Source: Bacilli bacterium
Lineage (GTDB): Bacteria; Bacillota_I; Bacilli_A; RF39; UBA660
Assembly (NCBI GenBank): GCA_017476705.1
Contig: JAFUZI010000078.1
Span: 1-43,309, forward strand
Length of the DNA: 43,309 bases
Reading direction: 5' to 3'
Below are positions 7,902-43,309 of the stretch, piece by piece. The notes under the pieces are model-generated. The model was given only the letters and a program-made list of their open reading frames with translations. It searched no databases and was not told the DNA's origin. Made by a program: the position numbers and the translations under genes. The number at the start of each line of letters is the position of its first letter. Within the stretch, counting starts at the first letter, position 1.

Positions 7902-7908
7902 GTGGCTT

Positions 7909-19482: not shown

Positions 19483-19495
19483 AAAGGAAGATTGT

Positions 19496-20026: not shown

Positions 20027-20052
20027 TGTAATTTAGTAAAGGAGAGTTAAAA

Positions 20053-20415: not shown

Positions 20416-20428
20416 TAGGAGGGTAAAT

Positions 20429-28730: not shown

Positions 28731-29342
28731 ATGAGTAAGTTAAATGAAAAAAACAAATTTGAAATTATTCCTAATTCTAAAACGGTTATATTATGTACAA
28801 ATAATGTTGATATAATAAAATTATCTAAATCAATTATAAATGATAATTCATTAGTTATTACAACTAAAGCTAAAGACATAGCATTAGATTCAAAATGTGA
28901 AAAACTTGTTAGATTACTTAAAATTGATGATTTATTTAACTATAATTTTGATACATTAAGTATTGGTGAAAAACAAATGTGTCAGGTGTGTAAAGCATTG
29001 TCATCAGATAAGAATACAATTATTATGGCAGATGCAATTTCTAATGTCGCATGTATTAATAAAGATATAGTATTTAAATTTTTAAAAAAAGTTAATAAGA
29101 CTGTAATATATATTACAAGCAACAAAGAAGATATAATGTATTTTGATAGATTAATATTATATGATGGAGAGGTTTTAATAAACGATAAACTTAATAATTC
29201 TTTTGAAAAGGAGAAGGAATTTAAAAAAGCAGGATTTAATCTTCCATTTATGATAGATTTATCTTTAAAACTTAAGTACTATAATTTGGTAAGCAAACCA
29301 ATTACTTCTATGAGTAGGATGGTGAACAAATTATGGAAATAA
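28731..29342 (+). CDS. EcfA-like ABC ATPase homologue, truncated and catalytically degenerate
   Basis: No Walker A. Signature LSIGEKQ, Walker B IIMADA, H-loop His replaced (YITSN). EcfA-type C-terminus GFNLPFMIDLSLKLK. ATG 28731 follows GAGGTGG. Confidence 0.65.
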   Translation: MSKLNEKNKFEIIPNSKTVILCTNNVDIIKLSKSIINDNSLVITTKAKDIALDSKCEKLVRLLKIDDLFNYNFDTLSIGEKQMCQVCKALSSDKNTIIMADAISNVACINKDIVFKFLKKVNKTVIYITSNKEDIMYFDRLILYDGEVLINDKLNNSFEKEKEFKKAGFNLPFMIDLSLKLKYYNLVSKPITSMSRMVNKLWK

Positions 29343-30118: not shown

Positions 30119-30129
30119 GGAGGATAAAT

Positions 30130-30858
30130 ATGAGATATTTACTTACATTTTCATATGATGGAACATTGTTTTTTGGATATCAAAAGCAGAATGGTAAAAG
30201 ATCTGTTCAAGAAGAGGTAGAGAGTGTTTTATCTAAGATAAATAATGAAAAAACTGTTATATCAGCAAGTGGTAGAACAGATAGAGGTGTGCATGCATTA
30301 AATCAAAAAGCACATTTTGATAGCCCTAAAACATTTGATTTAGATAGACTTAGACATTCTATGAATAAAATGCTTCCTCCAGATATTTTTATTAAAAATA
30401 TTGAAAATGTAAGTGACACTTTCCATGCTAGATTTGATGTTGTTAAAAAAGAATATGTATATAAGATAAATGTTGGTGAATATAATCCATTAGATAGAAA
30501 CTACGTATATCAATATAATTGGAAATTAGATGTTGATAAAATGCGTGATGCAATTAAGTATTTTGTTGGAACACATAACTTTAAATCTGTAACAAAGACT
30601 ATTACTGAAGAAAAAGATTATGTAAGAACAATATATGATGCATCTATTGAATTTGATAATAATATTATTACTATTACATTTAGTGGTAGCGGTTTTATGA
30701 GGTATATGGTAAGAAATATGGTAGGACTTTTAATAGCTGTTGGTGAGTCTAAAATAGAGCCTTCTGATATTTCTTCAATTCTAGATAAAGAAAATAGAAT
30801 ATTTGCCAAAAAAACCGCACCATCTGAGGGATTATATCTTAAAAATGTATATTACTAA
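30130..30858 (+). CDS. truA: tRNA pseudouridine(38-40) synthase
   Basis: GRTDRGVHA catalytic motif; 242 aa; canonical position upstream of rplM. Confidence 0.93.
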   Translation: MRYLLTFSYDGTLFFGYQKQNGKRSVQEEVESVLSKINNEKTVISASGRTDRGVHALNQKAHFDSPKTFDLDRLRHSMNKMLPPDIFIKNIENVSDTFHARFDVVKKEYVYKINVGEYNPLDRNYVYQYNWKLDVDKMRDAIKYFVGTHNFKSVTKTITEEKDYVRTIYDASIEFDNNIITITFSGSGFMRYMVRNMVGLLIAVGESKIEPSDISSILDKENRIFAKKTAPSEGLYLKNVYY

Positions 30859-30883
30859 AATTTAAGAAATTGCCTTAAATTTA

Positions 30884-30912
30884 TTGACAAATAGCTTGTT
30901 TTTTAGTACAAT
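30884..30912 (+). promoter_or_regulatory. SigmaA-type promoter of rplM-rpsI
   Basis: TTGACA (30884-30889), 17-nt spacer, TACAAT (30907-30912). Confidence 0.6.
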
Positions 30913-30918
30913 TTAACT

Positions 30919-31002
30919 TGGTACATTTATTAAATCCCATCGAGATAAATATTGGGAACATTTATCTCAAAAAAAATCTATTATTTAGAAAGGGAAAATA
31001 TT
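30919..31002 (+). promoter_or_regulatory. rplM 5' leader with a stable hairpin (L13-leader-like)
   Basis: 9-bp stem GAGATAAAT (30942-30950) / ATTTATCTC (30960-30968). An alternative CCCA (30936-30939) / TGGG (30953-30956) pairing competes with it. Confidence 0.4.
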
Positions 31003-31437
31003 ATGAAAGATACATATATGCAAAGAAAAGAAGATATCGTGCGTAATTGGTATGTTGTTGACGCTGAAGGACAAAATTTAGGTCGTGTAGCTGCTCAAGT
31101 ATCTATGGTACTTATGGGTAAAAACAAACCAACTTATACACCACATATCGATTGTGGAGATAACGTTATTGTTATCAATGCTTCAAAAGTTAACTTAACT
31201 GGTAAAAAATTAGATAATAAAATCTATTACAACCATTCAGGTTATACTGGAGGATTAAGAGAAAGAACTGCTCGTGAAATGAAAGAAAACTATCCAGTTG
31301 AAATGATCGAAAGAGCTGTTAAAGGAATGCTTCCAAAAGGAAGACTTGGACGTCAAATGTATAAAAAATTATTCGTTTATGAAAATGGAGAACATCCACA
31401 CATGGCTCAAAAGCCTGTTGAGATGAAATTAAAATAG
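31003..31437 (+). CDS. rplM: 50S ribosomal protein uL13
   Basis: [28 protein letters not shown]. The ORF-track 30952 start falls in the leader. Confidence 0.93.
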
Positions 31438-31448
31438 GAGGTAACTAG

Positions 31449-31862
31449 ATGGCTAATAAAGTATTTACTGGTACAGGTAGAAGAAAATCTTCAGTTGCTC
31501 AAGTTAGAATGGTTGCTGGAAAAGGTAACATTACAGTTAACGGTAGAGATGTAAGAGACTTCTTCCCATATGAAACTAATGTAATGGATTTAAAACAACC
31601 TTTAGTTGCTACAAATAACGAAGAAACATTTGATATCGAAGTTAAAGTTAATGGTGGTGGATTCACTGGACAAACTGGTGCTATTAGATTAGGTATCACT
31701 AGAGCATTACTTGAATATGATGCAGCTAATGAAGGAAAAGAAGATAGCTATAGAACAATCTTAAAAAGAGCTGGTTTCATTACAAGAGATTCAAGAATGA
31801 AAGAACGTAAAAAACCAGGACTTAAAGCAGCTCGTAGAGCTCCACAATTCTCAAAAAGATAA
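31449..31862 (+). CDS. rpsI: 30S ribosomal protein uS9
   Basis: …[11 protein letters not shown]…; ends …RRAPQFSKR. Confidence 0.96.
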
Positions 31863-31877
31863 TATTTTGTGTATATC

Positions 31878-31903
31878 AAGCCAAGATTTATATCTTGGTT
31901 TTT
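31878..31903 (+). terminator. Intrinsic terminator after rpsI
   Basis: CCAAGAT (31881-31887) / ATCTTGG (31892-31898) followed by T5. Confidence 0.7.
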
Positions 31904-31951
31904 ATGTGGAAATATAATAATATATATGGTAAAATATAGTAGGTGATTTAA

Positions 31952-32821
31952 ATGACTTTAAGTAATGAATGGAAAGATTATGAAATTATAGATACATCTA
32001 ATGGTGAAAAGTTAGAGAGATGGAATAATATATATTTACTTAGGCCTGATCCTCAAATAATATGGGATAATGGTAAGTTAATTGAAAACTATGATAATAT
32101 TAATGCAGTATACTATCGAAGTAATAAAGGTGGCGGTCATTGGGAAAATTTAAAAGCTACTCCAGCTGAATGGCAAGTTAATTATAAAAATTTAACATTT
32201 AATATTAAACAAATGGGATTTAAACATACAGGGCTTTTTCCTGAACAAGCAGCTAACTGGGATTTTATGATTGATAAGATCAAAAAGTCAGGAAGAGATA
32301 TAAAAGTACTTAACTTATTTGCTTATACTGGTGGTGCTTCAGTTGCATGCCTATCAGCAGGCGCATCAGTAGTTCACGTTGATTCATCTAGAGGAATGGT
32401 AGACTGGGCTAAAGAAAATGTAAAATCATCAGGACTAGAAGATAGACCAATAAGATATTTAGTAGACGATGTCGTTAAATTTGTTAAAAGAGAAATTAGA
32501 CGTGGTAATAAATATGATGCAATAGTAATGGATCCACCTAGTTATGGACGTGGGTCTAATGGTGAAGTTTGGGATATTGAAAAAGATTTATTTAATTTAG
32601 TGAATCTATGTACTGAAATTTTATCAGATGATCCATTATTCTTTATAATAAACTCATATACTACTGGTTTATCTAAAGAAGTATTAGTTAATGTTTTAAA
32701 ATTAACAGTTGGAAAAATTTATAATGGTGACATTTATTCTGATGAGATAGGACTTCCTATTAAAAATAGTGATTTAGTACTTCCTTGTGGAATATATGGA
32801 AGGTTTGAAAAAAAGGACTAA
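31952..32821 (+). CDS. Class I SAM-dependent methyltransferase (RlmI/RlmK-like catalytic domain)
   Basis: Motif I NLFAYTGGASVA and motif IV VMDPPSYGRG; 289 aa. Confidence 0.72.
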   Translation: MTLSNEWKDYEIIDTSNGEKLERWNNIYLLRPDPQIIWDNGKLIENYDNINAVYYRSNKGGGHWENLKATPAEWQVNYKNLTFNIKQMGFKHTGLFPEQAANWDFMIDKIKKSGRDIKVLNLFAYTGGASVACLSAGASVVHVDSSRGMVDWAKENVKSSGLEDRPIRYLVDDVVKFVKREIRRGNKYDAIVMDPPSYGRGSNGEVWDIEKDLFNLVNLCTEILSDDPLFFIINSYTTGLSKEVLVNVLKLTVGKIYNGDIYSDEIGLPIKNSDLVLPCGIYGRFEKKD

Positions 32822-32838
32822 TTATTAGTCCTTTTTGT
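32808..32838. terminator. Bidirectional terminator shared by convergent genes
   Basis: 10-bp stem AAAAGGACTA (32811-32820) / TAGTCCTTTT (32826-32835), flanked by an A-run and a T-run. It contains both stop codons. Confidence 0.6.
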
Positions 32839-33073
32839 ATTCTATAATATCTGTTATATCACAATCTAGATAGTTACATAATCTAGCAAGTACTGCCAAA
32901 TCAATTCTCTCGATTTCTCCGCTCCATATTCTTTTTAGTACTTTATAGTCAGTATTTGTATCACGCATTATTTTGTTTTTGCTAATTTTCTTATCTTCAA
33001 GAAGCTTTTCTAGTTTAAAAATTATATGGCCATTTTCAAGTTTAACTTTATATATTTTTTCCATTTTGGCCAC
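32825..33073 (-). CDS. Small Cro/C1-type HTH regulator (HTH_26-like, 82 aa)
   Basis: …ISKNKIMRDTNTDYKVLKRIWSGEIERIDLAVLARLCNYLDCDITDIIEY pattern. Confidence 0.7.
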   Translation of the reverse strand: MAKMEKIYKVKLENGHIIFKLEKLLEDKKISKNKIMRDTNTDYKVLKRIWSGEIERIDLAVLARLCNYLDCDITDIIEYKKD

Positions 33074-33111
33074 CTTCTCTCTAATAAAATTTTATCAAAA
33101 TGATTTGCCAG

Positions 33112-33140
33112 TTGACTATTGGCTATATAACCAATATAAT
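33112..33140 (+). promoter_or_regulatory. Promoter with a palindromic operator in the spacer
   Basis: TTGACT (33112-33117), 17-nt spacer, TATAAT (33135-33140). The spacer is the near-palindrome ATTGGcTATATAaCCAAT (33118-33135). Confidence 0.5.
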
Positions 33141-33156
33141 TAAAGAAGGTGATTGT

Positions 33157-33333
33157 ATGGAATATAAAGATTTAATTAAACTTGTTGAAGATAAGAGAAA
33201 TAAAGTATATAAACAGTTTAAAAAATCAAAGTTATTTAAGAAAAAATATATGGTGTATATCAATAAATATGATGTGTTATTATTAGAATTATATACAAAA
33301 TATGAAAAATATTTAACTATTACTGATATTTAG
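33157..33333 (+). CDS. Small hypothetical protein (58 aa, basic, helical)
   Basis: ATG 33157 follows AAGAAGGTGA. The ORF-track start 33100 lies upstream of the promoter. Confidence 0.4.
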   Translation: MEYKDLIKLVEDKRNKVYKQFKKSKLFKKKYMVYINKYDVLLLELYTKYEKYLTITDI

Positions 33334-33357
33334 TCATATATTTTATTAGGTGATTAT

Positions 33358-33482
33358 ATGAAGAAAAAAAACATTATAATAGTTATGATGTTTTTATTTG
33401 CATTAGTATTTAACATTATAAAGGCTGACAATAGTAATCTTCCTCTTTTTGGGAAAGTTATTTATATTGACCCTGGTCATGG
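33358..33482 (+). pseudogene. cwlD: 5' fragment of cwlD (germination-specific N-acetylmuramoyl-L-alanine amidase): signal/anchor peptide up to DPGHG
   Basis: MKKKNIIIVMMFLFALVFNIIKADNSNLPLFGKVIYIDPGHG, after which the frame runs into element DNA (EYLYTRSNIIEVR, stop at 33523-33525). Confidence 0.85.
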
Positions 33483-33562
33483 CGAATACTTATATACTAG
33501 GAGCAATATAATTGAGGTAAGATAATACAAAATATAAACTATTATAGGAGGTATTATGTACT

Positions 33563-33775
33563 ATGACTTTCAAAGAATTTTGTAAGAAATATAACGAAAT
33601 AAAAATAAAATATGATACTATTGTTTTGTCTGAATTAATTAAATTATATAAGGAATATGGAAAGGAAAAGCCAACACCACAGATTATATTTAATGAACTA
33701 CATGATTATATAAATTATTCTGATAAAGAGGAAAAGCATATTATAAAAGAAGCAATAAAGTTGAGTTGTAAATAA
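33563..33775 (+). CDS. Hypothetical small helical protein (70 aa)
   Basis: ORF with AGGAGG upstream, at the left end of the element. Confidence 0.4.
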   Translation: MTFKEFCKKYNEIKIKYDTIVLSELIKLYKEYGKEKPTPQIIFNELHDYINYSDKEEKHIIKEAIKLSCK

Positions 33776-33783
33776 AGGTCAAA

Positions 33784-33817
33784 AAGAAAAGCAAGTTTAA
33801 ATTTACTTGCTTTTTTT
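33784..33817. terminator. Bidirectional terminator between convergent element genes
   Basis: AAAAGCAAGT (33787-33796) / ACTTGCTTTT (33805-33814), with A/T runs on both sides. Confidence 0.55.
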
Positions 33818-33991
33818 GAAATCTATATTTTTAAGGGCATATTCTATACATTGATTAATAAGTTGGTTTCTACTAATATCGGTTTGCATAGCTATTTTAT
33901 CTATTTCTTCTACTTTATCTATATTTAATCTAATTGAAATAACTATTTTTTCATTTTTAGGTATTGTTTTAGTTGGTTGAAATTTTTCCAT
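33803..33991 (-). CDS. Ribbon-helix-helix (CopG/Arc-like) DNA-binding protein
   Basis: 62 aa. Beta-strand KIVISIRLN followed by two helices (KVEEIDKIA…SRNQLINQCIEYALKN). Confidence 0.65.
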   Translation of the reverse strand: MEKFQPTKTIPKNEKIVISIRLNIDKVEEIDKIAMQTDISRNQLINQCIEYALKNIDFKKSK

Positions 33992-34055
33992 ATTTTTACA
34001 CCTTTCTTTATATAATTGTATTCTTTTTTAATATTTATTCATATATTCAATAATA

Positions 34056-34075
34056 GTATTCAAAAAAATGAATAC
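34056..34075. promoter_or_regulatory. Palindromic operator candidate in the divergent RHH / membrane-protein promoter region
   Basis: GTATTCA-aaaaaa-TGAATAC, with an extra GTATTC copy at 34018-34023. An extended -10 TGgTATAAT lies at 34091-34099. Confidence 0.45.
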
Positions 34076-34122
34076 AAAATACAGAAACTATGGTATAATA
34101 CTTGCAGAGGTGCTATGTTTGT

Positions 34123-35085
34123 ATGGATAATAAAACAAAAGATTTGATTACAAATTATAAACAAGCTATAGATTTAATGTACGAAGTTGATATGAAGTAT
34201 AAGAAAATTAATTCATTAGATACTGATATAAATAGAATTAAAGATAATTTTACTCATAGAGAAGAAGAACTTCATTATAAAATTATTGCTAATTCTAATA
34301 ATACAGAAAAAATAGTAAAAAGAATAATAAGATTTGGTCTTGCAATTATTATTTGTATACTATTTATTAAAGGATATATGCATAACAAAATAATTCCAGG
34401 TATTGAGGAAACACCAGCTTATACTTTTAGTGATTATTTTACAATAGCATTTGATTCACTTTTACTCTTTGCTATATTTCAATTTGTTGGTAAATTACCA
34501 GCATATATAATTTATAATATTTTTGGTAATAGATTAGAAGAATTATCTAGCAAGAAATATACTAAAGAACAAGAAAAATTATCAAATGAAAGAAAAAAAG
34601 CAAATAATGAAATAAGCAAAATAAATATGGAGATAGAGCAATTAAATAAAGAGATAGAGAGTAAACAAAAAGAAATAGATAAAATTAATCTTGGTAATTT
34701 ACACAATGATTATAAAAATTATTATGCTTTAACTTTGTTTGTAGATTATTTAGAAAAAGGACGATGTGATAGTATAAAAGAGTGTATTAATTTGTATGAG
34801 CATGAATTAAAAGAAAATGAAAGAAATAATCAAATTCAAAATTTACAAAGTCAAGTTAATAGACAAATTGGTAATGTTAGAGATGAAATGCAAAGTATTA
34901 GAAATAAAATTGAAGATGTTAATAGTGAAATTGGCGGTATGAAAGATAACATAAAAGATATTAATTCAAAAGCATCAAAGAGTTTAGATTTAGCTGAAAC
35001 AGAGGCTAAAATTAAAACAGAAGAACTTACTTATGAATATGGTAGAGAAAAATTAAGACAAATTAATAATAAAAATTATAAGTAA
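34123..35085 (+). CDS. Membrane protein with two TM helices and long coiled-coil regions; function unknown
   Basis: ATG 34123 follows GAGGTG. TM segments are IIRFGLAIIICILFI and LLLFAIFQFVGKLPAYIIYNIF. The C-terminal half has heptad-like K/E/N/I repeats. Confidence 0.6.
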   Translation: MDNKTKDLITNYKQAIDLMYEVDMKYKKINSLDTDINRIKDNFTHREEELHYKIIANSNNTEKIVKRIIRFGLAIIICILFIKGYMHNKIIPGIEETPAYTFSDYFTIAFDSLLLFAIFQFVGKLPAYIIYNIFGNRLEELSSKKYTKEQEKLSNERKKANNEISKINMEIEQLNKEIESKQKEIDKINLGNLHNDYKNYYALTLFVDYLEKGRCDSIKECINLYEHELKENERNNQIQNLQSQVNRQIGNVRDEMQSIRNKIEDVNSEIGGMKDNIKDINSKASKSLDLAETEAKIKTEELTYEYGREKLRQINNKNYK

Positions 35086-35108
35086 AAATGAAAGTAGAGG
35101 GATAGAAA

Positions 35109-35777
35109 ATGAAAAAAATAAGATTTTTAAGTTTAATATTGATGATGGCATTAGTTTTAACTGGTTGTGGTAAAGATAAGACTAGATATATTGATGGCAA
35201 AGGAACAAGTCTTCAATCTGAATGTCCTAGTGATAAATGTGTATATTCTTCATATCATAATTCTGATATATATTTTAAATCTGATAATGTAGATAATGAT
35301 AAAAAAACTTTAAAAAATTATGTTAAAGATTATAAGGAATTAACATATGAGGATAAAGATGATAATAAGGTTAAACAAAGTAGAGTTTTTATGGCATATA
35401 TTTTGGATAAAAAAGAGCAAGTAGAAAAAGCATTTGTATGTGGAATTGTTTATAATGTTAATTATGGTGAAAAAGTTATGTGCTTTGAGGGTGGAAACAT
35501 TAATGATGAGAAAAGTTATGAAACTGCCAAATCAAATTTAATCGCAAAATTAGGCACTAAATCTGATGATAGTTATTATGGTTGTTATATTGACAATGAC
35601 TATGGAGAAGATTATCTTAATTGTGCAGTTCAGACTGATGAACATAACGATGATATACATTTCTTACTATATAAAAATGGAAACATAAATGTTTCAACAT
35701 ATAGAAGAGATGGCGAATTGTGTTTTATTACAAGTAAAGAAATCGGTCATTATATGGGGTGCATGATTAATAGATAA
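35109..35777 (+). CDS. Cys-rich lipoprotein of unknown function
   Basis: Signal peptide plus lipobox LTGC (MKKIRFLSLILMMALVLTGCG). The mature part has 9 further Cys. Confidence 0.7.
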   Translation: MKKIRFLSLILMMALVLTGCGKDKTRYIDGKGTSLQSECPSDKCVYSSYHNSDIYFKSDNVDNDKKTLKNYVKDYKELTYEDKDDNKVKQSRVFMAYILDKKEQVEKAFVCGIVYNVNYGEKVMCFEGGNINDEKSYETAKSNLIAKLGTKSDDSYYGCYIDNDYGEDYLNCAVQTDEHNDDIHFLLYKNGNINVSTYRRDGELCFITSKEIGHYMGCMINR

Positions 35778-35783
35778 AACAAT

Positions 35784-35817
35784 AAAGAACTAGATCATAA
35801 ATATACTAGTTCTTTTT
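35784..35817 (+). terminator. Intrinsic terminator after the lipoprotein gene
   Basis: 10-bp stem AAAGAACTAG (35784-35793) / CTAGTTCTTT (35806-35815) followed by Ts. Confidence 0.65.
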
Positions 35818-35820
35818 ATT

Positions 35821-36039
35821 TTACCTACATTTATCTTTAATCATTCTATTTATAATATCGCCTAAATTTTCTATATCTTCTTCACTGAAAGAATTTTGAT
35901 AATATATTTTTGGTACTAAAATATAATAACAATCATTAGTGTTTATATCTTTTTTGTTTTTGTTTATTGCAAATTCTTTTTCCAATTCTTCATAAAGTTC
36001 ATAATATTCATCTTGGTTTATTTCATTATTATTTAATTT
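35821..36039 (-). other. 72 open codons in the same frame immediately after the TAA stop of the XRE gene (nonsense-truncated C-terminal domain, readthrough, or a gene with a non-ATG start)
   Basis: Manual translation: KLNNNEINQDEYYELYEELEKEFAINKNKKDINTNDCYYILVPKIYYQNSFSEEDIENLGDIINRMIKDKCR, stop at 35821-35823. Confidence 0.4.
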
Positions 36040-36438
36040 TTATTTTAACTTTACTATATCAAAGAGATATTTAATAAATACAGGTTTAGTTTTAAATTGC
36101 AATGTTTCAATATTATGCACTTGTAAATGTCGGTCCGTATATTCTTTATTAAAGATTTTAATATCAAACACTACATCTAACATTTTATCAAGCTTATTTT
36201 CATCTGCATCTGTATAATCTGTTAAGTTATATAAGTAATCTAAACTGACTTGACATAAATTTTTCATTTTAATTGCTAAATCAACCTTTAATTCTGTAGT
36301 ACCACTTTCAATATTTTTTATTACTTGTTCGGATATACCATCTAATTTATCTGCAAGTTTCCTTTTAGTTTTATATCCAGCTAATTCTCTAGCAAGTTTA
36401 ACTCTTTTTCCTATTTTTTTATTTTCCTCTTTAGTCAT
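36040..36438 (-). CDS. XRE-family HTH repressor (ImmR/CI-like) of the element
   Basis: HTH_3 pattern IGKRVKLARELAGYKTKRKLADKLDGISEQVIKNIESG. ATG 36438 follows GGGGA, and the gene is divergent from the transfer module. Confidence 0.8.
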   Translation of the reverse strand: MTKEENKKIGKRVKLARELAGYKTKRKLADKLDGISEQVIKNIESGTTELKVDLAIKMKNLCQVSLDYLYNLTDYTDADENKLDKMLDVVFDIKIFNKEYTDRHLQVHNIETLQFKTKPVFIKYLFDIVKLK

Positions 36439-36484
36439 TTTCAATTCCCCTTTCATTCAGATATTATATAGTAAAAGTGGCAAT

Positions 36485-36562
36485 TTGTCATCTTTTTTTT
36501 GTACTTTTTTCTGGGTGTCTTGTACCCTATTTTAATGACAACTACTAAAAAATGAGTATTAT
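36485..36562. promoter_or_regulatory. Divergent control region with repeated TTGTCA/TTGTAC words
   Basis: TTGTCAT (36485-36491) is inverted as ATGACAA (36535-36541). TTGTAC occurs at 36499-36504 and 36520-25. Possible rightward promoter ATGACA, 16-nt spacer, TATTAT. Confidence 0.3.
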
Positions 36563-36618
36563 AAGAAGCGTCTTGAGGAAAAACTCGGACAAAAATATAA
36601 TGAGAGGAGGGATACTTT

Positions 36619-36939
36619 ATGTTTAACGAAATTTATCTTGATACTGATAAGACAGTTGGAACAAAATTTTTATTAACAGAAGTTAAAGAAAAAGCCGTAT
36701 ATGAAAATGGTAAGCCAACTGGAGCATATAGTGGATACAAGTACACAGTTAGTTGTATGGAAAAAGGTTTAAAACAAATAAATGTTTCTATACCTGGAAC
36801 TCAACAAGTATCATTATCTGCTAGTGATGACTTTAAAGAAGTATCATTCAAAGATTTAACATTGAAAGCATTTATAATGAATAATCGTATTCAATTTAGT
36901 GCTAGTGCAACTGGTATAACAGAAATAAAAGAAAAATAG
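36619..36939 (+). CDS. Small beta-rich protein, HelP/DUF961-like (helicase processivity factor of ICEBs1/Tn916-type elements)
   Basis: 106 aa, immediately upstream of the FtsK-like gene. Size, position and sequence pattern resemble Tn916 Orf22/23-type proteins. Strong SD GAGAGGAGGG. Confidence 0.45.
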   Translation: MFNEIYLDTDKTVGTKFLLTEVKEKAVYENGKPTGAYSGYKYTVSCMEKGLKQINVSIPGTQQVSLSASDDFKEVSFKDLTLKAFIMNNRIQFSASATGITEIKEK

Positions 36940-36971
36940 AGGAATTATATTTCCTCTTCCCCTAATGGGGA
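36938..36971 (+). other. Two adjacent GC-rich hairpins between the helP-like and ftsK-like genes
   Basis: AGAGGAA (36938-36944) / TTCCTCT (36951-36957), then TCCCC (36958-36962) / GGGGA (36967-36971). No T-run follows. Confidence 0.4.
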
Positions 36972-36988
36972 ATTAAGGAGTGATTAAA

Positions 36989-38131
36989 ATGATTATATTA
37001 AAGATTATTATAATGGTTATGTATTTGATATTTTCAATATATGTTTGGAATAAGAAAAATTTATTAATAGATTTTATGCATTTAAACGAACAAAATCTAA
37101 TAGATAAAGTTTTTATAAATGGATATTATATTGTTTTAGTTGTATTGATAATATTAATTGCAATTTGGTTATTAAGAAAAATAAGTGATAAAGGAGACTT
37201 TAAAATGAATTGTATAAACATAATGAATAAAGAGGGACAAAGTGCGAAATTATATAAAATAAAAAAAGATACAAATAATTATAGAAAGTATTACTTTAAA
37301 AATTATGGTGTACCACTTGAAGAATTTATTAATAAAAAATCATATTTAGAAACAGCTCTTAATGCAAAAATAGAAAGTATATCATATGGTAAAGATAGTA
37401 AATCTATTATTGTCTATGGTATCCCATTTAAACTAATAAAGCCAAGAAATTTTATGTTATCATCAGAAGACGCTTTTTTAGTAGATAACCCAATTAATTA
37501 TTTAATAGTTGGTGGTACTGGTTCGGGTAAAACTACAATGTCAAAAATATTATTATGTAATTTAATTTTTAGATATAGTGATATTAAATTATATATTCTT
37601 GATTATAAGAACGAAGACTTTTTGTTTTTAAAAGATTATAAAAGATATTATGGATATAAAGAAGTAGAAAAAGGAATTAATGAGGTTTATGAAGAATTTC
37701 AAAATAGATTATCTTCGGACAATGCCGATAAAACACCTATTATATTATTTATAGATGAATATGCCTCTTTTTTAAGTAGTTTAGGGAAAAGAGCAAATGA
37801 ATATCAAAGTAAAATATCTGAAATCTTATTTATGGGAAGAGTTTATCAGATAATTCCTATAATAGCTATGCAAAGAGCTGATAGTAGTTATTTTAATAAT
37901 GGTTCTAGAGACCAATTTAAAAGAATAATTGCATTAGGTAATTTATCTAAAGAACAAAAAGCAATGCTCTTTAATGACTTTAAAGACAATATGAATGATA
38001 TTAATAAGATAGGCGAGGGTTATGTATATGAAGATGGAAATGTTTACTTGACTAGAATTAAAGTGCAAAAAGTAAATGCTGATGAGGAAAGAATAATAAA
38101 TAATTGCATAAGAAATGCTGTATCTAATTAG
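36989..38131 (+). CDS. FtsK/SpoIIIE/TcpA-type DNA translocase (coupling-protein-like)
   Basis: Two N-terminal TM helices, Walker A GGTGSGKT, Walker B ILFIDEY. ATG 36989 lies 9 nt after AAGGAG. Confidence 0.82.
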   Translation: MIILKIIIMVMYLIFSIYVWNKKNLLIDFMHLNEQNLIDKVFINGYYIVLVVLIILIAIWLLRKISDKGDFKMNCINIMNKEGQSAKLYKIKKDTNNYRKYYFKNYGVPLEEFINKKSYLETALNAKIESISYGKDSKSIIVYGIPFKLIKPRNFMLSSEDAFLVDNPINYLIVGGTGSGKTTMSKILLCNLIFRYSDIKLYILDYKNEDFLFLKDYKRYYGYKEVEKGINEVYEEFQNRLSSDNADKTPIILFIDEYASFLSSLGKRANEYQSKISEILFMGRVYQIIPIIAMQRADSSYFNNGSRDQFKRIIALGNLSKEQKAMLFNDFKDNMNDINKIGEGYVYEDGNVYLTRIKVQKVNADEERIINNCIRNAVSN

Positions 38132-38134
38132 AGG

Positions 38135-39103
38135 GTGGGCCACTGCGAAAGCAAAGTGGACCACTGCCACGAAGTGGCATATAGTCTTGTTTCTTATGAT
38201 ACATTAACATGTTTATTAATGAAGATTGAAAAAATAAGCAATAATACTGAAATTGGGCTTAATTCAAAAAGTAATGTTTCTGTAAAAGAGATGGACAATA
38301 TAACAGAAGTAAGATACTCTTTAAATAATGTTGGCGGTTTTATTAAAAAGATAGATAAAGATTATTACTATGACATAAGAACTGGCGAGGTTAAACAATT
38401 TAAACATACAGACAATAGAAAACAAAATAAGGAAAGTGTTTCTCGTAGTTTAAGAAATTTAAGAGATATTATTAATACTAATATTATTGATTATAAAAAA
38501 GTGCTATGGATAACTTTAACTTATAAAGAAAATATGACTGATAGTAAAAGATTGTATAATGATTTTCGCAAATTTCATATGAGATTAAAAAGGTATATAA
38601 AGAAAAATAATTTACCTAACTATGAATATATAAATGTAGGGGAACCTCAAAGAAGAGGTGCTTGGCATTTACATATCTTACTGATTTTTAGTAAAACTGC
38701 TCCTTTTATTAAAAAAACTATATTAGAAAGAATATGGGGTTTTGGTTTCGTATCTATAAATAAATTAAAGCAAATTGATAATGTTGGTGTTTATTTGACG
38801 GCTTATCTTTCTAACTATTGTTTAGATCAAGATGAAGCCGAATTAAACACTAATAAAAAATCTATTATTAAAGGTGCTCGATTAAGAATGTATCCACCTG
38901 GTTTTAAAATATATCGTTGTAGCAAAGGAATAAAAAAACCAATTAAATATGATTGTATAGAAGAAGATATACAAGAAAAATTATCAAATGATATTTTGAC
39001 ATATCAAAAAACAATTCAACTTGTAAAAGAAGATGGAAAAATTATTAATAAATTAAATTATAGACATTATAATAAAATTAAAAAAGTGAAAGCGAATAAG
39101 TAA
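38135..39103 (+). CDS. HUH-type rolling-circle Rep / relaxase-like protein; start uncertain (GTG 38135 or ATG 38219)
   Basis: QRRGAWHLHILLIF (HUH motif) and GVYLTAYLSNY (Tyr motif). Confidence 0.72.
   Translation: MGHCESKVDHCHEVAYSLVSYDTLTCLLMKIEKISNNTEIGLNSKSNVSVKEMDNITEVRYSLNNVGGFIKKIDKDYYYDIRTGEVKQFKHTDNRKQNKESVSRSLRNLRDIINTNIIDYKKVLWITLTYKENMTDSKRLYNDFRKFHMRLKRYIKKNNLPNYEYINVGEPQRRGAWHLHILLIFSKTAPFIKKTILERIWGFGFVSINKLKQIDNVGVYLTAYLSNYCLDQDEAELNTNKKSIIKGARLRMYPPGFKIYRCSKGIKKPIKYDCIEEDIQEKLSNDILTYQKTIQLVKEDGKIINKLNYRHYNKIKKVKANK
38138..38180 (+). other. Candidate oriT / nick region: tandem GC-rich hairpins
   Basis: CCACTGC is repeated at 38140-38146 and 38161-38167. AAGTGG is repeated at 38154-38159 and 38172-38177. 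CCACT/AGTGG stems form, and the first has an inner GC-GAAA-GC tetraloop. Confidence 0.45.
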
Positions 39104-39206
39104 TGAGAGCGAGGAAGTAATAGCATTTTGATAAGGAAGTGATGAAAAATGTTATATAACATAATGTTTAGTATTTTTTCATACTCTTTAATAAAGAGGT
39201 GTAAAA

Positions 39207-39335
39207 ATGGGAGACTACAATATTGTAGTTGTTAACGATTATAATTCTAATGCTATTACCGATACACAACTTTCAGATATATTAAATCAGCTACTTGCTA
39301 AATTGATAATATTTTATGAGGAAAATGTTTCTTAA
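39207..39335 (+). CDS. Tiny ORF (42 aa) upstream of the recombinase; possible directionality factor, very uncertain
   Basis: ATG follows AAAGAGGTG: MGDYNIVVVNDYNSNAITDTQLSDILNQLLAKLIIFYEENVS. Confidence 0.2.
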   Translation: MGDYNIVVVNDYNSNAITDTQLSDILNQLLAKLIIFYEENVS

Positions 39336-39340
39336 AATGG

Positions 39341-39369
39341 TTGAGATAATACAAAAAAACATATATAAT
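39341..39369 (+). promoter_or_regulatory. SigmaA-like promoter upstream of the recombinase gene
   Basis: TTGAGA (39341-39346), 17-nt spacer, TATAAT (39364-39369). Confidence 0.4.
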
Positions 39370-39416
39370 GAATTTGTATTATCTTTACCTCAATTTTTAG
39401 GAAGGAATGGTAAGAA

Positions 39417-41507
39417 TTGAGGAATAATAAGGAGAGTGAATTTAATAATTTTGATAATACAAAGGATTATAATATACATGAAACCATTGAATTTAAGAAC
39501 ATAAAAGAAGTGTTATTTGAAGATAATTTAGAATACATGACAGATTATTTGAGAAACTTATTAAAAGTTGAGAAACCTAATAATCTTGATTGCTTTAAGC
39601 AAAAATTATTTTTAACTAATGCAAATCAAAATGGCAAAAGAGCTATAATATATGTAAGATTATCTGTAGAAGATATAGAAAAATCAGATGGTAATGTTAG
39701 TAAAAGTATATTAAATCAGCTTTTAATGTTATTAACTTATTGTAGAGATAAAGGACTATATGTAGTAGGAATATTTTATGAAGAGGGAATAAGCGGTAGT
39801 GATGGTAGCCGTGAAGAATGGAATAAAACACTAACATTTTGTGAACTTGGTAATACTGATATTTATATTTGCAAAAGTCAATCTAGATTTGCAAGAAGTA
39901 TAGAGTTTGTAGAAAAATATTTACATAAGAAATTTATAGAGTGGAATATAAGGTTTTTAAGCATTGTTGATAATATTGATACTAACAATAAAGGAAATAA
40001 GAAATCTAGTCAAATAACAGCTATGACAGACCAATGGCGACTAGAAGACCAATCTGTTTCTACTAGAAGTACATTTAAAGCTAAAAATGAAGCTGGACAA
40101 TGGACTGGGTCATTTGCACCATATGGCTATGATGAAGACCCTAGCGATAGGTACCATTTTGTTATAGATGAAGAGGCAGCTAAAGTTGTGAGGGATATTT
40201 ATTCTATGTATGCTAATGGACTTGGATATTTTAAAATATGTAAAATTTTAAATGATAAAAATATACCAACACCTAGTAGATATAAAAAATTAAAAGGCTC
40301 AAATTATGTTTGCCCAGTAGCACCAAATGGAAGTACTTATTGGAATAAAGATACTATTAGAAAAATATTAATGGATAAAACCTATGATGGAATATTAATA
40401 CAACACAGAACTGAAAACATTTCTTATGATAACGATAAACGAAGAATTATACCAGAAGAAGAACAAAGAGTAGTAGCTTGTTGTCATGAAAGAATAATTG
40501 ACCCTAATATTTCAAAAATAGTAAGAAAAAAATTTGATGATAGAAAGAAAAAAGACCTTTTATCTTTATCAAAAAGAGAAACTAGTTCTTTAATTTCATT
40601 AATTGAAAATGCTATTGAAAATGGCAATATCATAGAAGAACAGATTTTAGAATTAAAATATAAAATATCTTTATTAAATAATGCTTTAGTAACCAATAAT
40701 ATAGAAGATATTATAATTAAGTTCAATGATTTAAGAGCTTATTCTTCAACTATTAATTCACAACTACAAAAAGATATACAAGATGGTATAGAAGTGTTTA
40801 CAACTTCTAAATCTAGAGTAAGACCAAGCAAAGATGGTAAAATACATATATTTAGTAAAAAAGTATATTGTAAGTGTTGTGGTAAAACTTTTACTAAAGA
40901 AGCTTATAAGACTGGACCACGAAAAAGTGGTAAAACTAAAGCATATTTAAAATGTAAAAATAGATTACAAACTGGTGGCTCTGCTTGTGATAATAATAAT
41001 TCAATACAATATGAGAAATTAGAAGAAGTTGTTTTAAATGAAATTAATAGTCTTATTAATAAATATTATAATCAATCAAAATTAGAAAAAAGCTATTATG
41101 AAAATAAAAATCATTCAAATATCAAAAGAGATATAGAAGTATTAGAAAAAGAAAAAAACGATTTAAGCAAACAGATTGCATTAAATAGTGAAAGATTTGC
41201 ACTATTATATGAAGATAGGGCAAATAAAATAATAACAACAGATGAATTTGTTATGCTTAAGAATAAATATCAAAATGATAACAATAGTTATAATTTACGA
41301 ATAGAAGAGATAAATTTAGAAATATCAGAACTAGAAAACAAAAAGGATAATCAACAAAATATATGTGACATTTTTAAAAAATATAAACATATTAGTAAAT
41401 TAGATAGAATTATTGTTGATACATTTATTTCAAAAATTTTAATTGATAAAATTGATAAAGGAACTAATACAAGAGAAATTAAAATAATATGGAACTTTAA
41501 TTTATAA
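39417..41507 (+). CDS. Large serine recombinase (integrase); TTG start uncertain
   Basis: Catalytic IIYVRLS…, SQSRFARS, recombinase domain (PYGYDED…VVRDIYSMYANG…ILNDKNIPTP), zinc ribbon CKCCGK…CKNRLQTGGSAC, and a C-terminal coiled coil. Confidence 0.9.
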   Translation: MRNNKESEFNNFDNTKDYNIHETIEFKNIKEVLFEDNLEYMTDYLRNLLKVEKPNNLDCFKQKLFLTNANQNGKRAIIYVRLSVEDIEKSDGNVSKSILNQLLMLLTYCRDKGLYVVGIFYEEGISGSDGSREEWNKTLTFCELGNTDIYICKSQSRFARSIEFVEKYLHKKFIEWNIRFLSIVDNIDTNNKGNKKSSQITAMTDQWRLEDQSVSTRSTFKAKNEAGQWTGSFAPYGYDEDPSDRYHFVIDEEAAKVVRDIYSMYANGLGYFKICKILNDKNIPTPSRYKKLKGSNYVCPVAPNGSTYWNKDTIRKILMDKTYDGILIQHRTENISYDNDKRRIIPEEEQRVVACCHERIIDPNISKIVRKKFDDRKKKDLLSLSKRETSSLISLIENAIENGNIIEEQILELKYKISLLNNALVTNNIEDIIIKFNDLRAYSSTINSQLQKDIQDGIEVFTTSKSRVRPSKDGKIHIFSKKVYCKCCGKTFTKEAYKTGPRKSGKTKAYLKCKNRLQTGGSACDNNNSIQYEKLEEVVLNEINSLINKYYNQSKLEKSYYENKNHSNIKRDIEVLEKEKNDLSKQIALNSERFALLYEDRANKIITTDEFVMLKNKYQNDNNSYNLRIEEINLEISELENKKDNQQNICDIFKKYKHISKLDRIIVDTFISKILIDKIDKGTNTREIKIIWNFNL

Positions 41508-41531
41508 TTCCTTGTATAAGAGAATGCCCGA

Positions 41532-42071
41532 CATGGAGGATTAGATCCTGGTGCATTATATGGTGGAATAAAAGAAAAAGATATTAATCTGGAAATATCA
41601 AAAAAATTAGACAATGGACTAACTAAATTAGGAGCTATTGTCTATATGACCAGAGATGGTGATTATGATTTGTCAGCAATTAGAACAAATAATAGAAAAA
41701 GAAGTGATTTATCTAGAAGGGTTAATTTAATAAATAAATCAAAGTGTGATATATTTTTATCAATTCATTTAAATGCTGAAGATACAAATTCTTGGAAAGG
41801 CGCTCAGGTATTTTATGATGATATTAATAGTTCAAATAAAAAATTGGCTATGGTATTGCAACAACAGCTAAAACGCGATTTAAAAACATCTAGAAAGATA
41901 AAAAAAGTTGATAAACTATATCTTCAAAAGAGAATTACTGTTCCGGGTGTTTTAATAGAAATTGGCTTTTTAAGCAATCCTAATGAAAGATATCTACTTA
42001 AATCTAATAATTATCAAGAAAAAGTTGTGAATTCAATTACCAAAGGGATATTATTATACTTTAATGATTGA
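41532..42071 (+). pseudogene. cwlD: 3' fragment of cwlD (catalytic Amidase_3 domain from HGG onward)
   Basis: The frame is open from 41520: HGGLDPGALYGGIKEKDINLEI…YMTRDGDYDL…SIHLNA…WKGAQVFY…PGVLIEIGFLSNPNE…KGILLYFND, collinear with B. subtilis CwlD. Confidence 0.85.
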
Positions 42072-42108
42072 TAGATATGTGTTATAATGTTATTGTAAGA
42101 TTGGGAGG

Positions 42109-43047
42109 ATGTCTATGAGTAAAAAGACATTTAAAACACTTGATGAGCAAGTTAAGATTTTAAGAGACAAGGGCTTGATTATAAATGATGAAGATAAAGT
42201 AAAAGAAATTCTTTTTAGAGAAAATTATTTTTTCATAAATGGATACAGACATCTATTTCAGCGAAATGATGTGGATAATACTTTTATTGCTGGGACAACA
42301 TTTGAAGAATTATATGGTGCATTTATTTTTGATAGAAATATAAGAAATATTATGTTTAAGTATATCTTAATTATTGAGAATAATGTTAAATCTGTTATTG
42401 GATACCAAATGTCTAGAAAATATGGTTTTAAAGAAAAAGATTATTTAAATCCTAAAAATTTTAATCAAGATAATATAAAAATTAGACAAGTATATGATGT
42501 TTTAAATAAGGTAAAACGACAACTTAGGATTAATGGAAGACAACATGCTGCAACAAGCCATTATATAAATAATTATGGTTATATTCCAATGTGGGTACTT
42601 GTTAAAGTATTGTCTTTTGGAATTATATCAGAATTATATGGCATTTTAAAAATTGAAGATCAAATTTCAATATCAAGTTATTATGGTATTAATTCATCAA
42701 CTTTACAAGTTTACTTGCAAATATTATCTAATTTTAGAAACTTGTGTGCGCATGAAGATATTTTGTATGATCATAGGATTCAAAAAGTAATACCAGATTG
42801 TATATATCATGAGCGTTTAAATATTGAAAAAACTGACGATGAATATAAATATGGTAAAAATGATTTATTCGCATTAATTATTATTATGAAAGAAATGCTT
42901 TCAAAAGAGGAATTTAACGACATGTTGTATCAAATTGGCTATGAAGTTGATGTGTTAGATGGAAAGGTTGATACTGTTCCTCTAAAAACAATTTTAAATA
43001 AAATGGGATTCCCAAGTAACTTTAGGGATATTAAAGAAATGGAGTAG
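42109..43047 (+). CDS. Abi_2 family (AbiD/AbiF-like) abortive-infection protein
   Basis: 312 aa. The N-terminus (KTLDEQVKILRDKGLII.DE…NYFFINGY) and FDRNIRNIMFKYILIIEN…CAHED are typical of Abi-like PF07751 proteins. Confidence 0.68.
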   Translation: MSMSKKTFKTLDEQVKILRDKGLIINDEDKVKEILFRENYFFINGYRHLFQRNDVDNTFIAGTTFEELYGAFIFDRNIRNIMFKYILIIENNVKSVIGYQMSRKYGFKEKDYLNPKNFNQDNIKIRQVYDVLNKVKRQLRINGRQHAATSHYINNYGYIPMWVLVKVLSFGIISELYGILKIEDQISISSYYGINSSTLQVYLQILSNFRNLCAHEDILYDHRIQKVIPDCIYHERLNIEKTDDEYKYGKNDLFALIIIMKEMLSKEEFNDMLYQIGYEVDVLDGKVDTVPLKTILNKMGFPSNFRDIKEME

Positions 43048-43051
43048 TTGT

Positions 43052-43309
43052 ATGGATAAAAAAATAGTTATGTCACTTTTATCTTCTGTCTTGGCTTTGG
43101 CATTGATTTTATGCATAAATGTTACCAATATTAATAAAAATAGTAAAATGGATGCATTAAAGTTTAAGGCAGAATATGAATCATTAAATGGTAAAAAAAA
43201 TAAAAATAATAAAGAATATGTACATGTTGAAATAAATAAGAATAATCCATTTGTGTATGCTAGTTTTGATGAAGTAATAGATACATTAAAAAATGGGACA
43301 GGTGTTATA
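43052..43309 (+). CDS. N-terminal part of a membrane-anchored/secreted protein (possibly thioredoxin-like); runs off the window
   Basis: MDKKIVMSLLSSVLALALILC signal/anchor, then …FKAEYESLNG…NPFVYASFDEVIDTLKNGTGVI. Confidence 0.35.
   Translation, partial: MDKKIVMSLLSSVLALALILCINVTNINKNSKMDALKFKAEYESLNGKKNKNNKEYVHVEINKNNPFVYASFDEVIDTLKNGTGVI

Follow-up and report, generated by a model that had tools for sequence, protein, structure and literature searches.

In the 43,309-nucleotide contig JAFUZI010000078.1 of a Bacilli bacterium (assembly GCA_017476705.1; the whole stretch is called the window below), the germination amidase gene cwlD is interrupted by an 8,049-bp element that encodes a large serine recombinase (LSR). 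The break falls in the His-Gly codons of the DPGHGG motif, and the pentamer CATGG stands at both borders. Site-specific recombination by the LSR put this mobilisable element into cwlD, with the crossover within the CATGG of the His-Gly codons, and the conserved DPGHGG-type coding motif of Amidase_3 genes is the host attachment site (attB) of the LSR clade. CwlD is needed for the muramic-delta-lactam of the spore cortex and for germination. The best explanation that we can offer is an SPbeta-like, mother-cell-specific excision that would restore cwlD, and we regard the case for and against it as evenly balanced.

An element splits cwlD in its metal-site codons

The open reading frame (ORF) at 33358–33525, MKKKNIIIVMMFLFALVFNIIKADNSNLPLFGKVIYIDPGHG, encodes 42 CwlD-like residues (MKKKN...IDPGHG) followed by 13 unrelated codons that belong to the element, and the frame at 41532–42071 translates as HGGLDPGALYGGIKEKDINLEISKKL... 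(HGGLDPGA...LLYFND). The two copies of CATGG (33478–33482 and 41532–41536) are 8,054 bp apart, and joining the flanks in silico over one copy gives a 219-codon ORF. An initial annotation of this DNA, made from its letters alone, had described a cwlD gene split in the HGG metal-site codons, and all of its coordinates and sequences for the split were verified here. It had also held that a precise CATGG joint restores the gene, and the computed joint equals the naturally intact alleles P0001, P0002 and P0004 (database proteins and loci are cited by P and L numbers). The LSR ORF, which it placed near the right border, stops 24 nt before the right CATGG, and the weak inverted repeat that it noted (CTTATA, 33489–33494; TATAAG, 41515–41520) is present as the outer segment of a quasi-palindromic attP conserved in the family. 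Coordinates of all features are collected in Table 1.

The 5′ fragment encodes the hydrophobic N-terminus of the product, MKKKNIIIVMMFLFALVF as read from the sequence. The 3′ fragment has neither a signal peptide nor a native start codon, and it is annotated by NCBI as a 167-aa amidase and by others as a 141-aa amidase. Both fragments are probably inactive while the element is integrated, since the N-terminal one keeps only His41 and the C-terminal one lacks both the signal peptide and His41.

The 219-aa protein encoded by the joined ORF was compared with profile hidden Markov models, as the initial annotation had proposed. It scores 222.9 bits against the NCBIfam equivalog model TIGR02883 (spore_cwlD), which is a narrow pass of the 221.55-bit cutoff, and only 77.8 bits against the second-best family. 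The Pfam Amidase_3 domain is present from end to end (1.2e-48; residues 35–213 correspond to profile positions 1–172 of 174). The nearest solved structure is that of C. difficile CwlD (7RAG, 1e-35), with which the DxGHGG, EKD and SIHLNA positions align, including His41 (HGG), Glu55 (EKD) and His119 (HLNA), the presumed zinc ligands. The gene order L13-S9-methyltransferase-helix-turn-helix (HTH)-58-aa ORF-cwlD, downstream of rplM-rpsI, is the same in the window and at loci that lack the element; cwlD is downstream of rplM-rpsI in B. subtilis and C. difficile as well. By its profile, structural match and neighbourhood, the joined ORF reads as CwlD.

Empty and occupied sites

Uninterrupted 219-aa proteins that are 100% identical to the joint (P0001, P0002 and P0004) were found by protein search in other metagenomes. 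A check of related genomes for unbroken cwlD, also proposed by the initial annotation, returned empty-site contigs (L001–L003, L035, L040 and L041) that carry L13, S9, methyltransferase, HTH_26, 58-aa ORF, cwlD and Abi_2 genes and have flanks ∼99% identical to the window. Positions 1–4395 of L001 correspond to window positions 29088–33482 and positions 4391–6168 to window positions 41532–43309, at ∼99% identity. Because these two matches overlap by exactly 5 bp, CATGG, the limits of the element are 33483–41531. The GC content of the element is 24.4%, compared with 28–29% in the flanks.

The same insertion is present in an independent ENA assembly (L004), which spans the identical right junction and a portion of the left one. 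The elements of the window and L004 differ at 2 of 8,049 positions (99.975% identity), whereas the right and left flanks are 96.1% and 99.5% identical, respectively, and the element is therefore younger than its surroundings. A further copy of the element (8.1 kb, 97.5% identity; LSR protein 99% identical) occupies positions 862–8972 of a Logan assembly (L037, SRR18398357). There the host gene encodes an Amidase_3-LysM protein without a signal peptide (MDYKIVIDAGH/GGTDPGANG..., where the slash marks the break) and the junctions are clean CATGG. The element is thus not dedicated to cwlD; the earlier identification of cwlD as its target holds for the window, where cwlD is occupied, but not for the element in general. 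That nearly the same element occurs within differing flanks and in a second gene implies that it is active and has spread recently. The interrupted gene of L037 adjoins a SleB/CwlJ-type Hydrolase_2 gene and an HD_5 gene.

These observations bear on whether the insertion could be an artefact of assembly or binning, with an unrelated element and two pieces of cwlD combined in a chimeric contig. The window is a contig of a gut metagenome-assembled genome (MAG), and two contigs of the left flank (L031 and L032) break 45 nt before the left junction. However, the right junction and part of the left one recur in the independent assembly, the same element has clean junctions in another gene in L037, and some 20 related elements share the junction structure (see below), so that an artefact is extremely improbable. 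The contigs L031 and L032 come from one project and stop at window position 33437. Their ends overlap the start of L004 (window position 33383) by exactly 55 nt, which resembles a branch in an assembly graph, such as a strain variant or a mixture of empty and occupied forms might produce, and the break point coincides with no known single-nucleotide polymorphism; we draw no conclusion from it.

The recombinase clade targets the Amidase_3 active-site motif

When GTDB species-representative genomes were scanned with the LSR, 18 loci were obtained, 17 of them with a close homologue (58–64% identical). The remaining locus, L022, was set aside as its recombinase is distant (31% identical over part of the protein). 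The carriers are gut MAGs labelled Bacilli, Tenericutes or Mollicutes, together with a few odd bin labels. At all 17 loci with a close homologue the sequence beyond the LSR stop codon enters an amidase gene that is broken at D[PAS]GHG/G, and four further homologues found by protein look-ups (L023, L024–L027) likewise abut a broken amidase motif. In total there are about 20 distinct elements with LSRs that are 58–68% identical, and every homologue recovered with sequence past the stop codon abuts a broken Amidase_3 gene.

The junction sequences (18 attL, 11 attR) align on CATG(G). The consensus of the host halves, ..aT.GTTaTTGATSC.GG. / CATGG /.GG....GATCC.GG.GC, encodes (V/I)(I/V)D(P/A)GHGGxDPGA, and the attB consensus of the clade reads ..GTTATTGATSCNGGN-CATGG-NGGNNNNGATCCNGG... 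The interrupted genes are of two types. CwlD-like genes encode a signal peptide and an LPLLGK..IDPGHG stretch, and the joined ORFs of L016, L017 and L018 score 193–206 bits against TIGR02883, which is slightly below the cutoff but by far their best match. Genes of the Amidase_3-LysM type (L015, L020, L037 and others) encode an amidase domain that starts at residue 1–10, with no signal peptide, followed by four or five LysM domains. With the window element in both types and all targets of the wider clade in Amidase_3 genes, the LSR is motif-specific rather than promiscuous. The possibility that the targets other than cwlD are prophage endolysins was considered and rejected for L015, where the gene is chromosomal and lies downstream of cdaA-ybbR-rplM-rpsI-Abi2-htrA.

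The loci fall into two classes by orientation. In class 1 (window, L037, L005, L008 and L024) the LSR and amidase genes point the same way and the LSR gene is beside the 3′ amidase fragment; in class 2 (all other loci) they point in opposite directions, with the LSR gene beside the 5′ fragment. The classes form separate clusters in the LSR tree, and the polarity of the att arms relative to the amidase gene is the same in both.

Little else is common to these elements. Those of L024–L027 have a backbone with a VirD4/TraG coupling protein and a sortase and are for that reason of conjugative type, and the others are cassettes of 3.6–10.6 kb with unrelated cargo, the cassette of L016 consisting only of the LSR, a small ORF and one 360-aa gene. 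Apart from the class-2-interrupted amidase gene, L023 contains an intact 216-aa Amidase_3 gene beside a polysaccharide deacetylase gene (18929–20990, minus strand), possibly a CwlD/PdaA-like pair; a second candidate amidase is thus available in some hosts.

Recombinase, small ORF and attP form a conserved unit

All four domains of the LSR (Table 1) exceed their Pfam cutoffs and the catalytic Ser83 is within YVRLS. The only significant matches among solved structures are the catalytic domain of TnpX (2MHC, 1.4e-9, the best) and the recombinase of a C. difficile conjugative transposon. DUF4368 marks the TndX-like 'multi-targeting' LSR clade (PMC10083194). A tblastn search of phage and plasmid collections with the LSR gave nothing above ∼41% identity and no annotated relative, so the element is not a known phage or plasmid module. 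The LSR ORF is unbroken in 20 of 20 loci examined.

An acidic ORF of 42–50 aa lies directly upstream of, and co-oriented with, every LSR gene for which upstream sequence is available (hmmsearch 2e-15 to 3e-25, with a profile built from seven copies). When the proteins of the window element were compared with the related loci by tblastn (1e-3), the LSR alone gave matches, so there is no conserved cargo. Conservation over the elements is confined to the LSR, the attP arms and the small ORF. The three constitute a portable recombination unit carried by otherwise unrelated backbones (the mobilisable element of the window, the conjugative-type element and the cargo cassettes), in which the small ORF is a candidate for the directionality factor.

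The arms of attP are conserved in both classes. Class-2 elements carry the homologous left arm GCAGATAATCTTATGCACGG, and the right arm, GTATAAGAG.AT...CA, is kept in L005, L008, L024 and L037. The resulting quasi-palindromic attP reads CCTTGTATAAGAGAATGCCCGA-CATGG-CGAATACTTATATACTAGG in the window and CCGTGTATAAAGGTATGTTGCA-CATGG-CAGATAATCTTATGCACGG in class 2. Its symmetry centre is the CA of CATGG, and in L016 attR reads CACGG where attL reads CATGG. From these two features the crossover dinucleotide is predicted to be CA (33478–33479) or, less likely, GG. A crossover at the palindromic AT, which could have explained the two orientations of the LSR gene, was rejected because the polarity of the att arms, as seen from the amidase gene, does not change between the classes; the separate LSR clusters of the classes and the CACGG of L016 rule it out further.

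More distant LSR homologues (P0208–P0240; 39–54% identical, ∼655–675 aa) have a precomputed LysM match (PF01476) inside the recombinase, a domain that is unusual in an LSR and striking in view of the many Amidase_3-LysM genes among the targets of the clade.

Promoter-like sequences of the unit and its targets

In Bacillus and C. difficile, sigmaE and sigmaK recognize a CATA-type −10 sequence with ATA (sigmaE) or AC (sigmaK) at −35, and both cwlD and the directionality factor gene of the C. difficile skin element, CD1234, are sigmaE-dependent (PMC3789822). In SPbeta the recombinase gene sprA has a sigmaA promoter and sprB a sigmaE/K promoter (PMC6957869). In 20 of 20 loci examined, a CATAnnnT box precedes the small ORF at a distance of 7–35 nt from its ribosome-binding site, and in 11 of them ATA stands 15–17 nt further upstream, most of these reading GAATAA(A/T)-N13/14-CATAgTnT. 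The background frequencies in 1.2 Mb are 0.0024 per nt for CATAnnnT and 0.0003 per nt for the composite motif. The sigmaA-like sequence before the LSR gene, TTGAGA-17-TATAAT, is where the initial annotation had reported it. It is a match to the consensus only, and such matches are no commoner in the region than in shuffled sequence (83 found, 78.8 expected). A TATAAT-type box, often (TG)TTATAAT, is located between the small ORF and the LSR in other family members too. With a sigmaE-like box at the small ORF and a sigmaA-like one at the LSR, the architecture is that expected of a unit that would excise in the mother cell.

The targets themselves carry similar boxes. A perfect CATAnnnTA is found close before the ribosome-binding site, 24–32 nt from the start codon, in 8 of 8 targets other than cwlD, compared with 3 of 220 other ORFs that have a ribosome-binding site, and in 5 of the 8 it is preceded by AC at a distance of 16–18 nt. 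Upstream of cwlD in the window and in its close relatives L028, L033, L036 and L041 there is a conserved AAC-N17-CATATATT in which the 17-nt spacer is variable in sequence. To judge by consensus matches, the target genes look like genes expressed in the mother cell. In the window, the TTTAAC and CATATATTT blocks (33313–33345) are sigmaK/E-like and lie directly upstream of the cwlD ribosome-binding site, the −10-like box CATATATTT ending only 6 nt before it.

Possible excision, its timing and the alternatives

We propose that recombination of attL with attR by the LSR would remove the element precisely and recreate the wild-type 219-codon cwlD, and that this would take place during sporulation, in the mother cell. 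As the directionality factor, the small ORF would be transcribed from the sigmaE-like promoter, with the LSR transcribed from the sigmaA-like promoter, as in the logic of sprB and sprA. The forespore chromosome would retain the element, which would thereby be inherited, while the cortex would still receive muramic-delta-lactam and the spores would germinate. Read-through from the de-repressed transfer operon could provide a second route of excision, feeding mobilisation to new hosts. The junctions expected on excision are GACCCTGGTCATGGAGGATTAGATCC for attB and GAATGCCCGACATGGCGAATACTTATA for attP. Extending this explanation to all of the related loci, we tentatively suggest, with somewhat less than even confidence, that they represent a new clade of portable units, each with a sigmaE-driven 42–50-aa factor, a TnpX-like LSR and attP, which is specialised on the active-site codons of sporulation amidase genes of the mother cell (cwlD and CwlC-like Amidase_3-LysM genes) in gut Bacilli with reduced genomes.

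Several points weigh against developmental excision. The small ORF has no match in Pfam, PHROG or NCBIfam, nor with any known directionality factor. The ATA at −35 is missing in the L006 group, L008, L016 and L019. The copies of the small ORF are homologous, such that agreement of the box reflects conservation and is not fully independent recurrence, even though the surroundings have diverged. The promoter consensus matches lie in DNA of 24–28% GC, and the sigma specificities of the host may differ from the consensus. Among contigs of the same species cwlD is intact in six samples and occupied in two or three; the insertion is recent and polymorphic, and not a fixed developmental feature of the species. 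Samples with both the empty and the occupied form were sought and none was shown, the intact P0002 and P0005 coming from other samples. Searches of IMG/VR and JGI metagenome contigs for the excised form, with the exact attP junction and with a degenerate class-2 attP, found none, a result that is uninformative because the organism is represented mainly in ENA and Logan data. Finally, LSRs of the TnpX type excise without a directionality factor, and none is known for any serine-recombinase mobilisable element (PMC5704250).

The last point touches on the comparison with the skin and SPbeta elements that was drawn in the initial annotation. An LSR does lie beside the att site, but the recombinase is TnpX/TndX-like, with DUF4368, and not SpoIVCA/SprA-like, which makes excision without a directionality factor a real alternative. 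The element could then be a motif-targeting knock-out of cwlD, with excision that is stochastic or linked to transfer, requires no directionality factor and is not coupled to sporulation. The Amidase_3 motif would merely offer a reliable attB in many hosts, the small ORF would have some other role, and carriers would be germination-defective or depend on rare excisants or on another amidase. The closest structure to the LSR is that of TnpX, which carries out excision and integration unaided, and the genes hit by serine-recombinase mobilisable elements are usually dispensable ones (PMC5704250); LSRs with DUF4368 are typically multi-targeting (PMC10083194). The presence of one element in two different amidase genes, the recent and polymorphic state of the insertion, and the repressor and transfer genes that the element has of its own all fit such a knock-out. 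It leaves unexplained, however, that a CATA-boxed small ORF is the sole partner of the LSR conserved over about 20 divergent elements, that a CATAnnnT(A) box of mother-cell type precedes every target recovered, those other than cwlD included, and that minimal cassettes such as that of L016, with its LSR, small ORF and one gene, persist in cwlD-like genes with the LSR intact. We consider a plain knock-out a serious possibility, but one with the balance of probability against it.

Sporulation capacity of the host

Developmental excision in the mother cell presupposes a host that sporulates, and the gut Bacilli orders RF39, RFN20 and ML615J-28 are undergoing repeated and ongoing loss of sporulation genes, with mixed predicted phenotypes (PMC10868615). 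Besides cwlD, the host contains an 80-aa Coat_F-domain ORF between ftsH and parA (window 4722–4964, minus strand; 50.9 bits, cutoff 25.7). A SpoVT-like gene is located ∼9 kb beyond the left end of the window on a contig of the same species (L038, 1111–1638); its product has an AbrB/MazE N-terminal domain and scores 60.8 bits for SpoVT_C and 132 bits for TIGR02851, the latter below the cutoff of 235.9. With these three genes the host keeps some genes of sporulation type, and a capacity to sporulate is plausible from its gene content.

Gene loss in these orders raises the further possibility of a neutral insertion into a decaying gene, in a lineage that is losing or has lost sporulation, such that cwlD would be unselected and need no reconstitution. 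A relative (L034) has a cwlD N-terminus that is disrupted without an element, as might be expected of such decay. Against this, both halves of cwlD in the window are free of further lesions and encode, when joined, the very protein of the intact alleles (100% identity), most relatives have a conserved and unbroken cwlD, the host keeps the Coat_F and SpoVT-like genes, and a conserved promoter-like box precedes cwlD. Decay of the gene is accordingly an improbable account of the insertion.

In L034, the flanks of which are ∼90% identical to the window, ∼190 nt of unrelated sequence stand in place of the N-terminal region of cwlD (3029–3282) and the reading frame is interrupted; the locus is perhaps a pseudogene or misassembled. 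The window also encodes a 210-aa membrane protein (10556–11188, plus strand) with matches to Bax1-I and, at 73 bits and below the cutoff, to the NCBIfam Mycoplasma 'MAG0110 family'. This fits a host related to Mollicutes-like Bacilli and, together with the labels of the related MAGs, points to gut Bacilli of the RF39/RFN20/ML615J-28 type.

Relation to known systems

The nearest systems by function are SPbeta/spsM, gin/gerE and skin/sigK. As to descent, TnpX/TndX are the nearest relatives of the recombinase, and streptococcal elements that combine a rolling-circle relaxase with TcpA are those of the backbone. SPbeta of B. subtilis, with SprA and SprB, is likewise an LSR element in a mother-cell sporulation gene, the ORF of which is restored by precise excision (as we infer here), and it shares with the proposed arrangement a sigmaA-type promoter for the integrase, a sigmaE/K-type promoter for the small factor and a second, spread-linked route of excision (PMC6957869). 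Its int-rdf-att unit is portable between backbones, and Suzuki et al. showed that such an 'SSR unit', to which the small ORF, LSR and attP correspond, is exchangeable between phages and conjugative elements (PMC6957869). Unlike the 8-kb mobilisable element described here, SPbeta is a 134-kb phage with a single gene target, rather than an active-site motif common to several paralogues, and the present LSR, TnpX-like and with DUF4368, has only matches of <42% identity in the phage and plasmid collections.

The gin element in gerE of B. cereus is also not a prophage, and its excision needs the LSR GirC and the 42-aa GirX, which are expressed in sporulation (PMC5595907). GirX has no recognisable motif; the small ORF here, likened to it by description, is also of 42 aa and beside the LSR. 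The two elements differ in target, recombinase clade and host group, and gin has three recombinases and no transfer genes. The skin elements in sigK (SpoIVCA in B. subtilis; CD1231 and CD1234 in C. difficile) are a precedent for the LSR-mediated reconstitution of a mother-cell gene that we propose, including the sigmaE control of CD1234 that is suggested here for the small ORF. In contrast, the skin elements interrupt a regulator and are defective prophages, fixed or common in a species, whereas the present element looks active and recently spread and interrupts the gene of a structural enzyme.

Tn4451/Tn4453 (TnpX) and Tn5397 (TndX) of Clostridia provide the closest structure and the same domain architecture, and they resemble the element in being small and mobilisable with very short flanking repeats and in the use of more than one target gene by one LSR (PMC10083194). 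The targets here, however, are not loosely defined but share a long coding motif (∼30 bp constrained) in one protein family, the core is the CA within CATGG and not GA, and TnpX needs no partner, unlike an LSR with a conserved small ORF upstream (PMC5704250). The streptococcal non-canonical mobilisable elements have a rolling-circle initiator-type relaxase (PHA00330/Rep_2), a TcpA/FtsK coupling protein and a single intragenic serine integrase (PMC5704250), as here, but occupy other hosts and targets (rumA, ebfC and others), with no link to sporulation reported and no candidate directionality factor described.

According to the initial annotation cwlD is not known as a target of intervening elements, and the literature agrees: the genes named are sigK, spsM, spoVFB, gerE, yabG and kamA, and no intervening element or LSR clade that targets cwlD or any other Amidase_3 gene was found in the searchable literature. 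What is unusual here is that attB is the coding sequence of the catalytic motif of an enzyme family, of which several paralogues are used, that the hosts are uncultured, genome-reduced gut Bacilli, and that the small ORFs are candidate directionality factors of a new family with very small members.

If excision is developmental, cwlD would join these six genes as one that a mobile element rebuilds in sporulation. The phenomenon would then include a germination enzyme that modifies the cortex, and would reach uncultured, genome-reduced gut Bacilli in which sporulation itself is debated. If, in addition, the clade is specialised in the manner suggested above, this would be the first germination or cortex-modification enzyme to be interrupted, rather than a regulator or a coat or crust gene, and the first sporulation-intervening system in RF39/RFN20-type Bacilli. 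Germinability of the carriers through muramic-lactam, and possibly mother-cell lysis through CwlC-like Amidase_3-LysM genes, would then depend on timely excision. If excision is not developmental, the element would be a mobile germination knock-out in gut populations, with a bearing on the transmission of these bacteria. Interest in the system would rise sharply if excision in the mother cell were demonstrated. In either case, targeting of catalytic-motif codons by a whole clade illustrates clearly how an LSR in nature gains a conserved and widespread attB, and about 20 sets of LSR, attP and attB with a ∼30-bp core, possibly with new small directionality factors, could serve recombinase engineering.

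Gene content of the element

The initial annotation had noted mobilisation genes on the element, and an FtsK/TcpA-like translocase and a rolling-circle Rep were found by Pfam and PHROG (Table 1). No VirB4, other type IV secretion (mating-pore) or phage structural genes are present among the ORFs of the 8-kb element, and PADLOC found no defence system on it. The gene for the HTH_3 repressor is divergent from the transfer genes. With an integrase, a relaxase-like protein and a coupling protein, the element is, on its predicted gene products, an integrative mobilisable element of the non-canonical type.

Table 1. Features of the cwlD locus and the integrated element (window coordinates)
Feature	Position	Strand	Remarks
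cwlD 5′ fragment	33358..33482	+	Signal peptide, LPLFGKVIYIDPGHG stretch, His41; matches residues 1–42 of intact P0001 exactly
attL core CATGG	33478..33482	+	5-bp identity common to attR and attB
Left attP arm (P′)	33483..33508	+	CGAATACTTATATACTAGGAGCAATA; inverted-repeat partner of right arm; same arm in L037
Integrative mobilisable element (predicted type)	33483..41531	.	8,049 bp, 24.4% GC; missing from ∼99%-identical empty-site contigs
70-aa ORF	33563..33775	+	No family match
62-aa transcriptional-regulator-like ORF	33803..33991	-	PHROG transcriptional regulator/repressor 7e-6, 1e-5
327-aa coiled-coil protein, cargo	34102..35085	+	Hydrophobic stretch; weak coiled-coil-type matches only
222-aa putative lipoprotein, cargo	35109..35777	+	LTGC lipobox; only lipoprotein signal region matches any family
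cI/ImmR-like HTH_3 repressor	36040..36456	-	Pfam HTH_3 3.7e-8; PHROG repressor families to 1e-10
106-aa ORF	36619..36939	+	First of transfer/replication block; no family match
FtsK/SpoIIIE (TcpA-like) translocase, candidate coupling protein	36980..38131	+	Pfam FtsK_SpoIIIE 34 bits (cutoff 24); PHROG 1.7e-18
Rolling-circle replication initiator, candidate non-canonical relaxase	38135..39103	+	REP_ORF2-G2P 73 bits; PHROG 5.9e-23
Candidate sigmaE-like promoter of small ORF	39159..39187	+	ACATAAT-N14-CATACTCT; consensus only
42-aa acidic ORF, candidate recombination directionality factor	39207..39335	+	6 D/E, 1 K/R
sigmaA-like promoter of LSR gene	39341..39369	+	TTGAGA-17-TATAAT, 11/12 consensus positions; consensus only
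Large serine recombinase (LSR), 696 aa, MBR1718537.1	39417..41507	+	Resolvase, Recombinase, Zn_ribbon_recom, DUF4368
Right attP arm (P)	41508..41531	+	TTCCTTGTATAAGAGAATGCCCGA
attR core CATGG	41532..41536	+	Same pentamer as attL
cwlD 3′ fragment	41537..42071	+	In frame from 41532 = residues 41–219, including Glu55 and His119

An AbiD/Abi_2 gene directly downstream of cwlD (42109–43047, plus strand; PADLOC AbiD 3.9e-62) belongs to the host, as it is also present at the empty sites. An Abi_2 gene adjoins the targeted amidase genes in L011, L015–L018, L020, L023 and L024 as well, often together with the gene for an HtrA-type protease.

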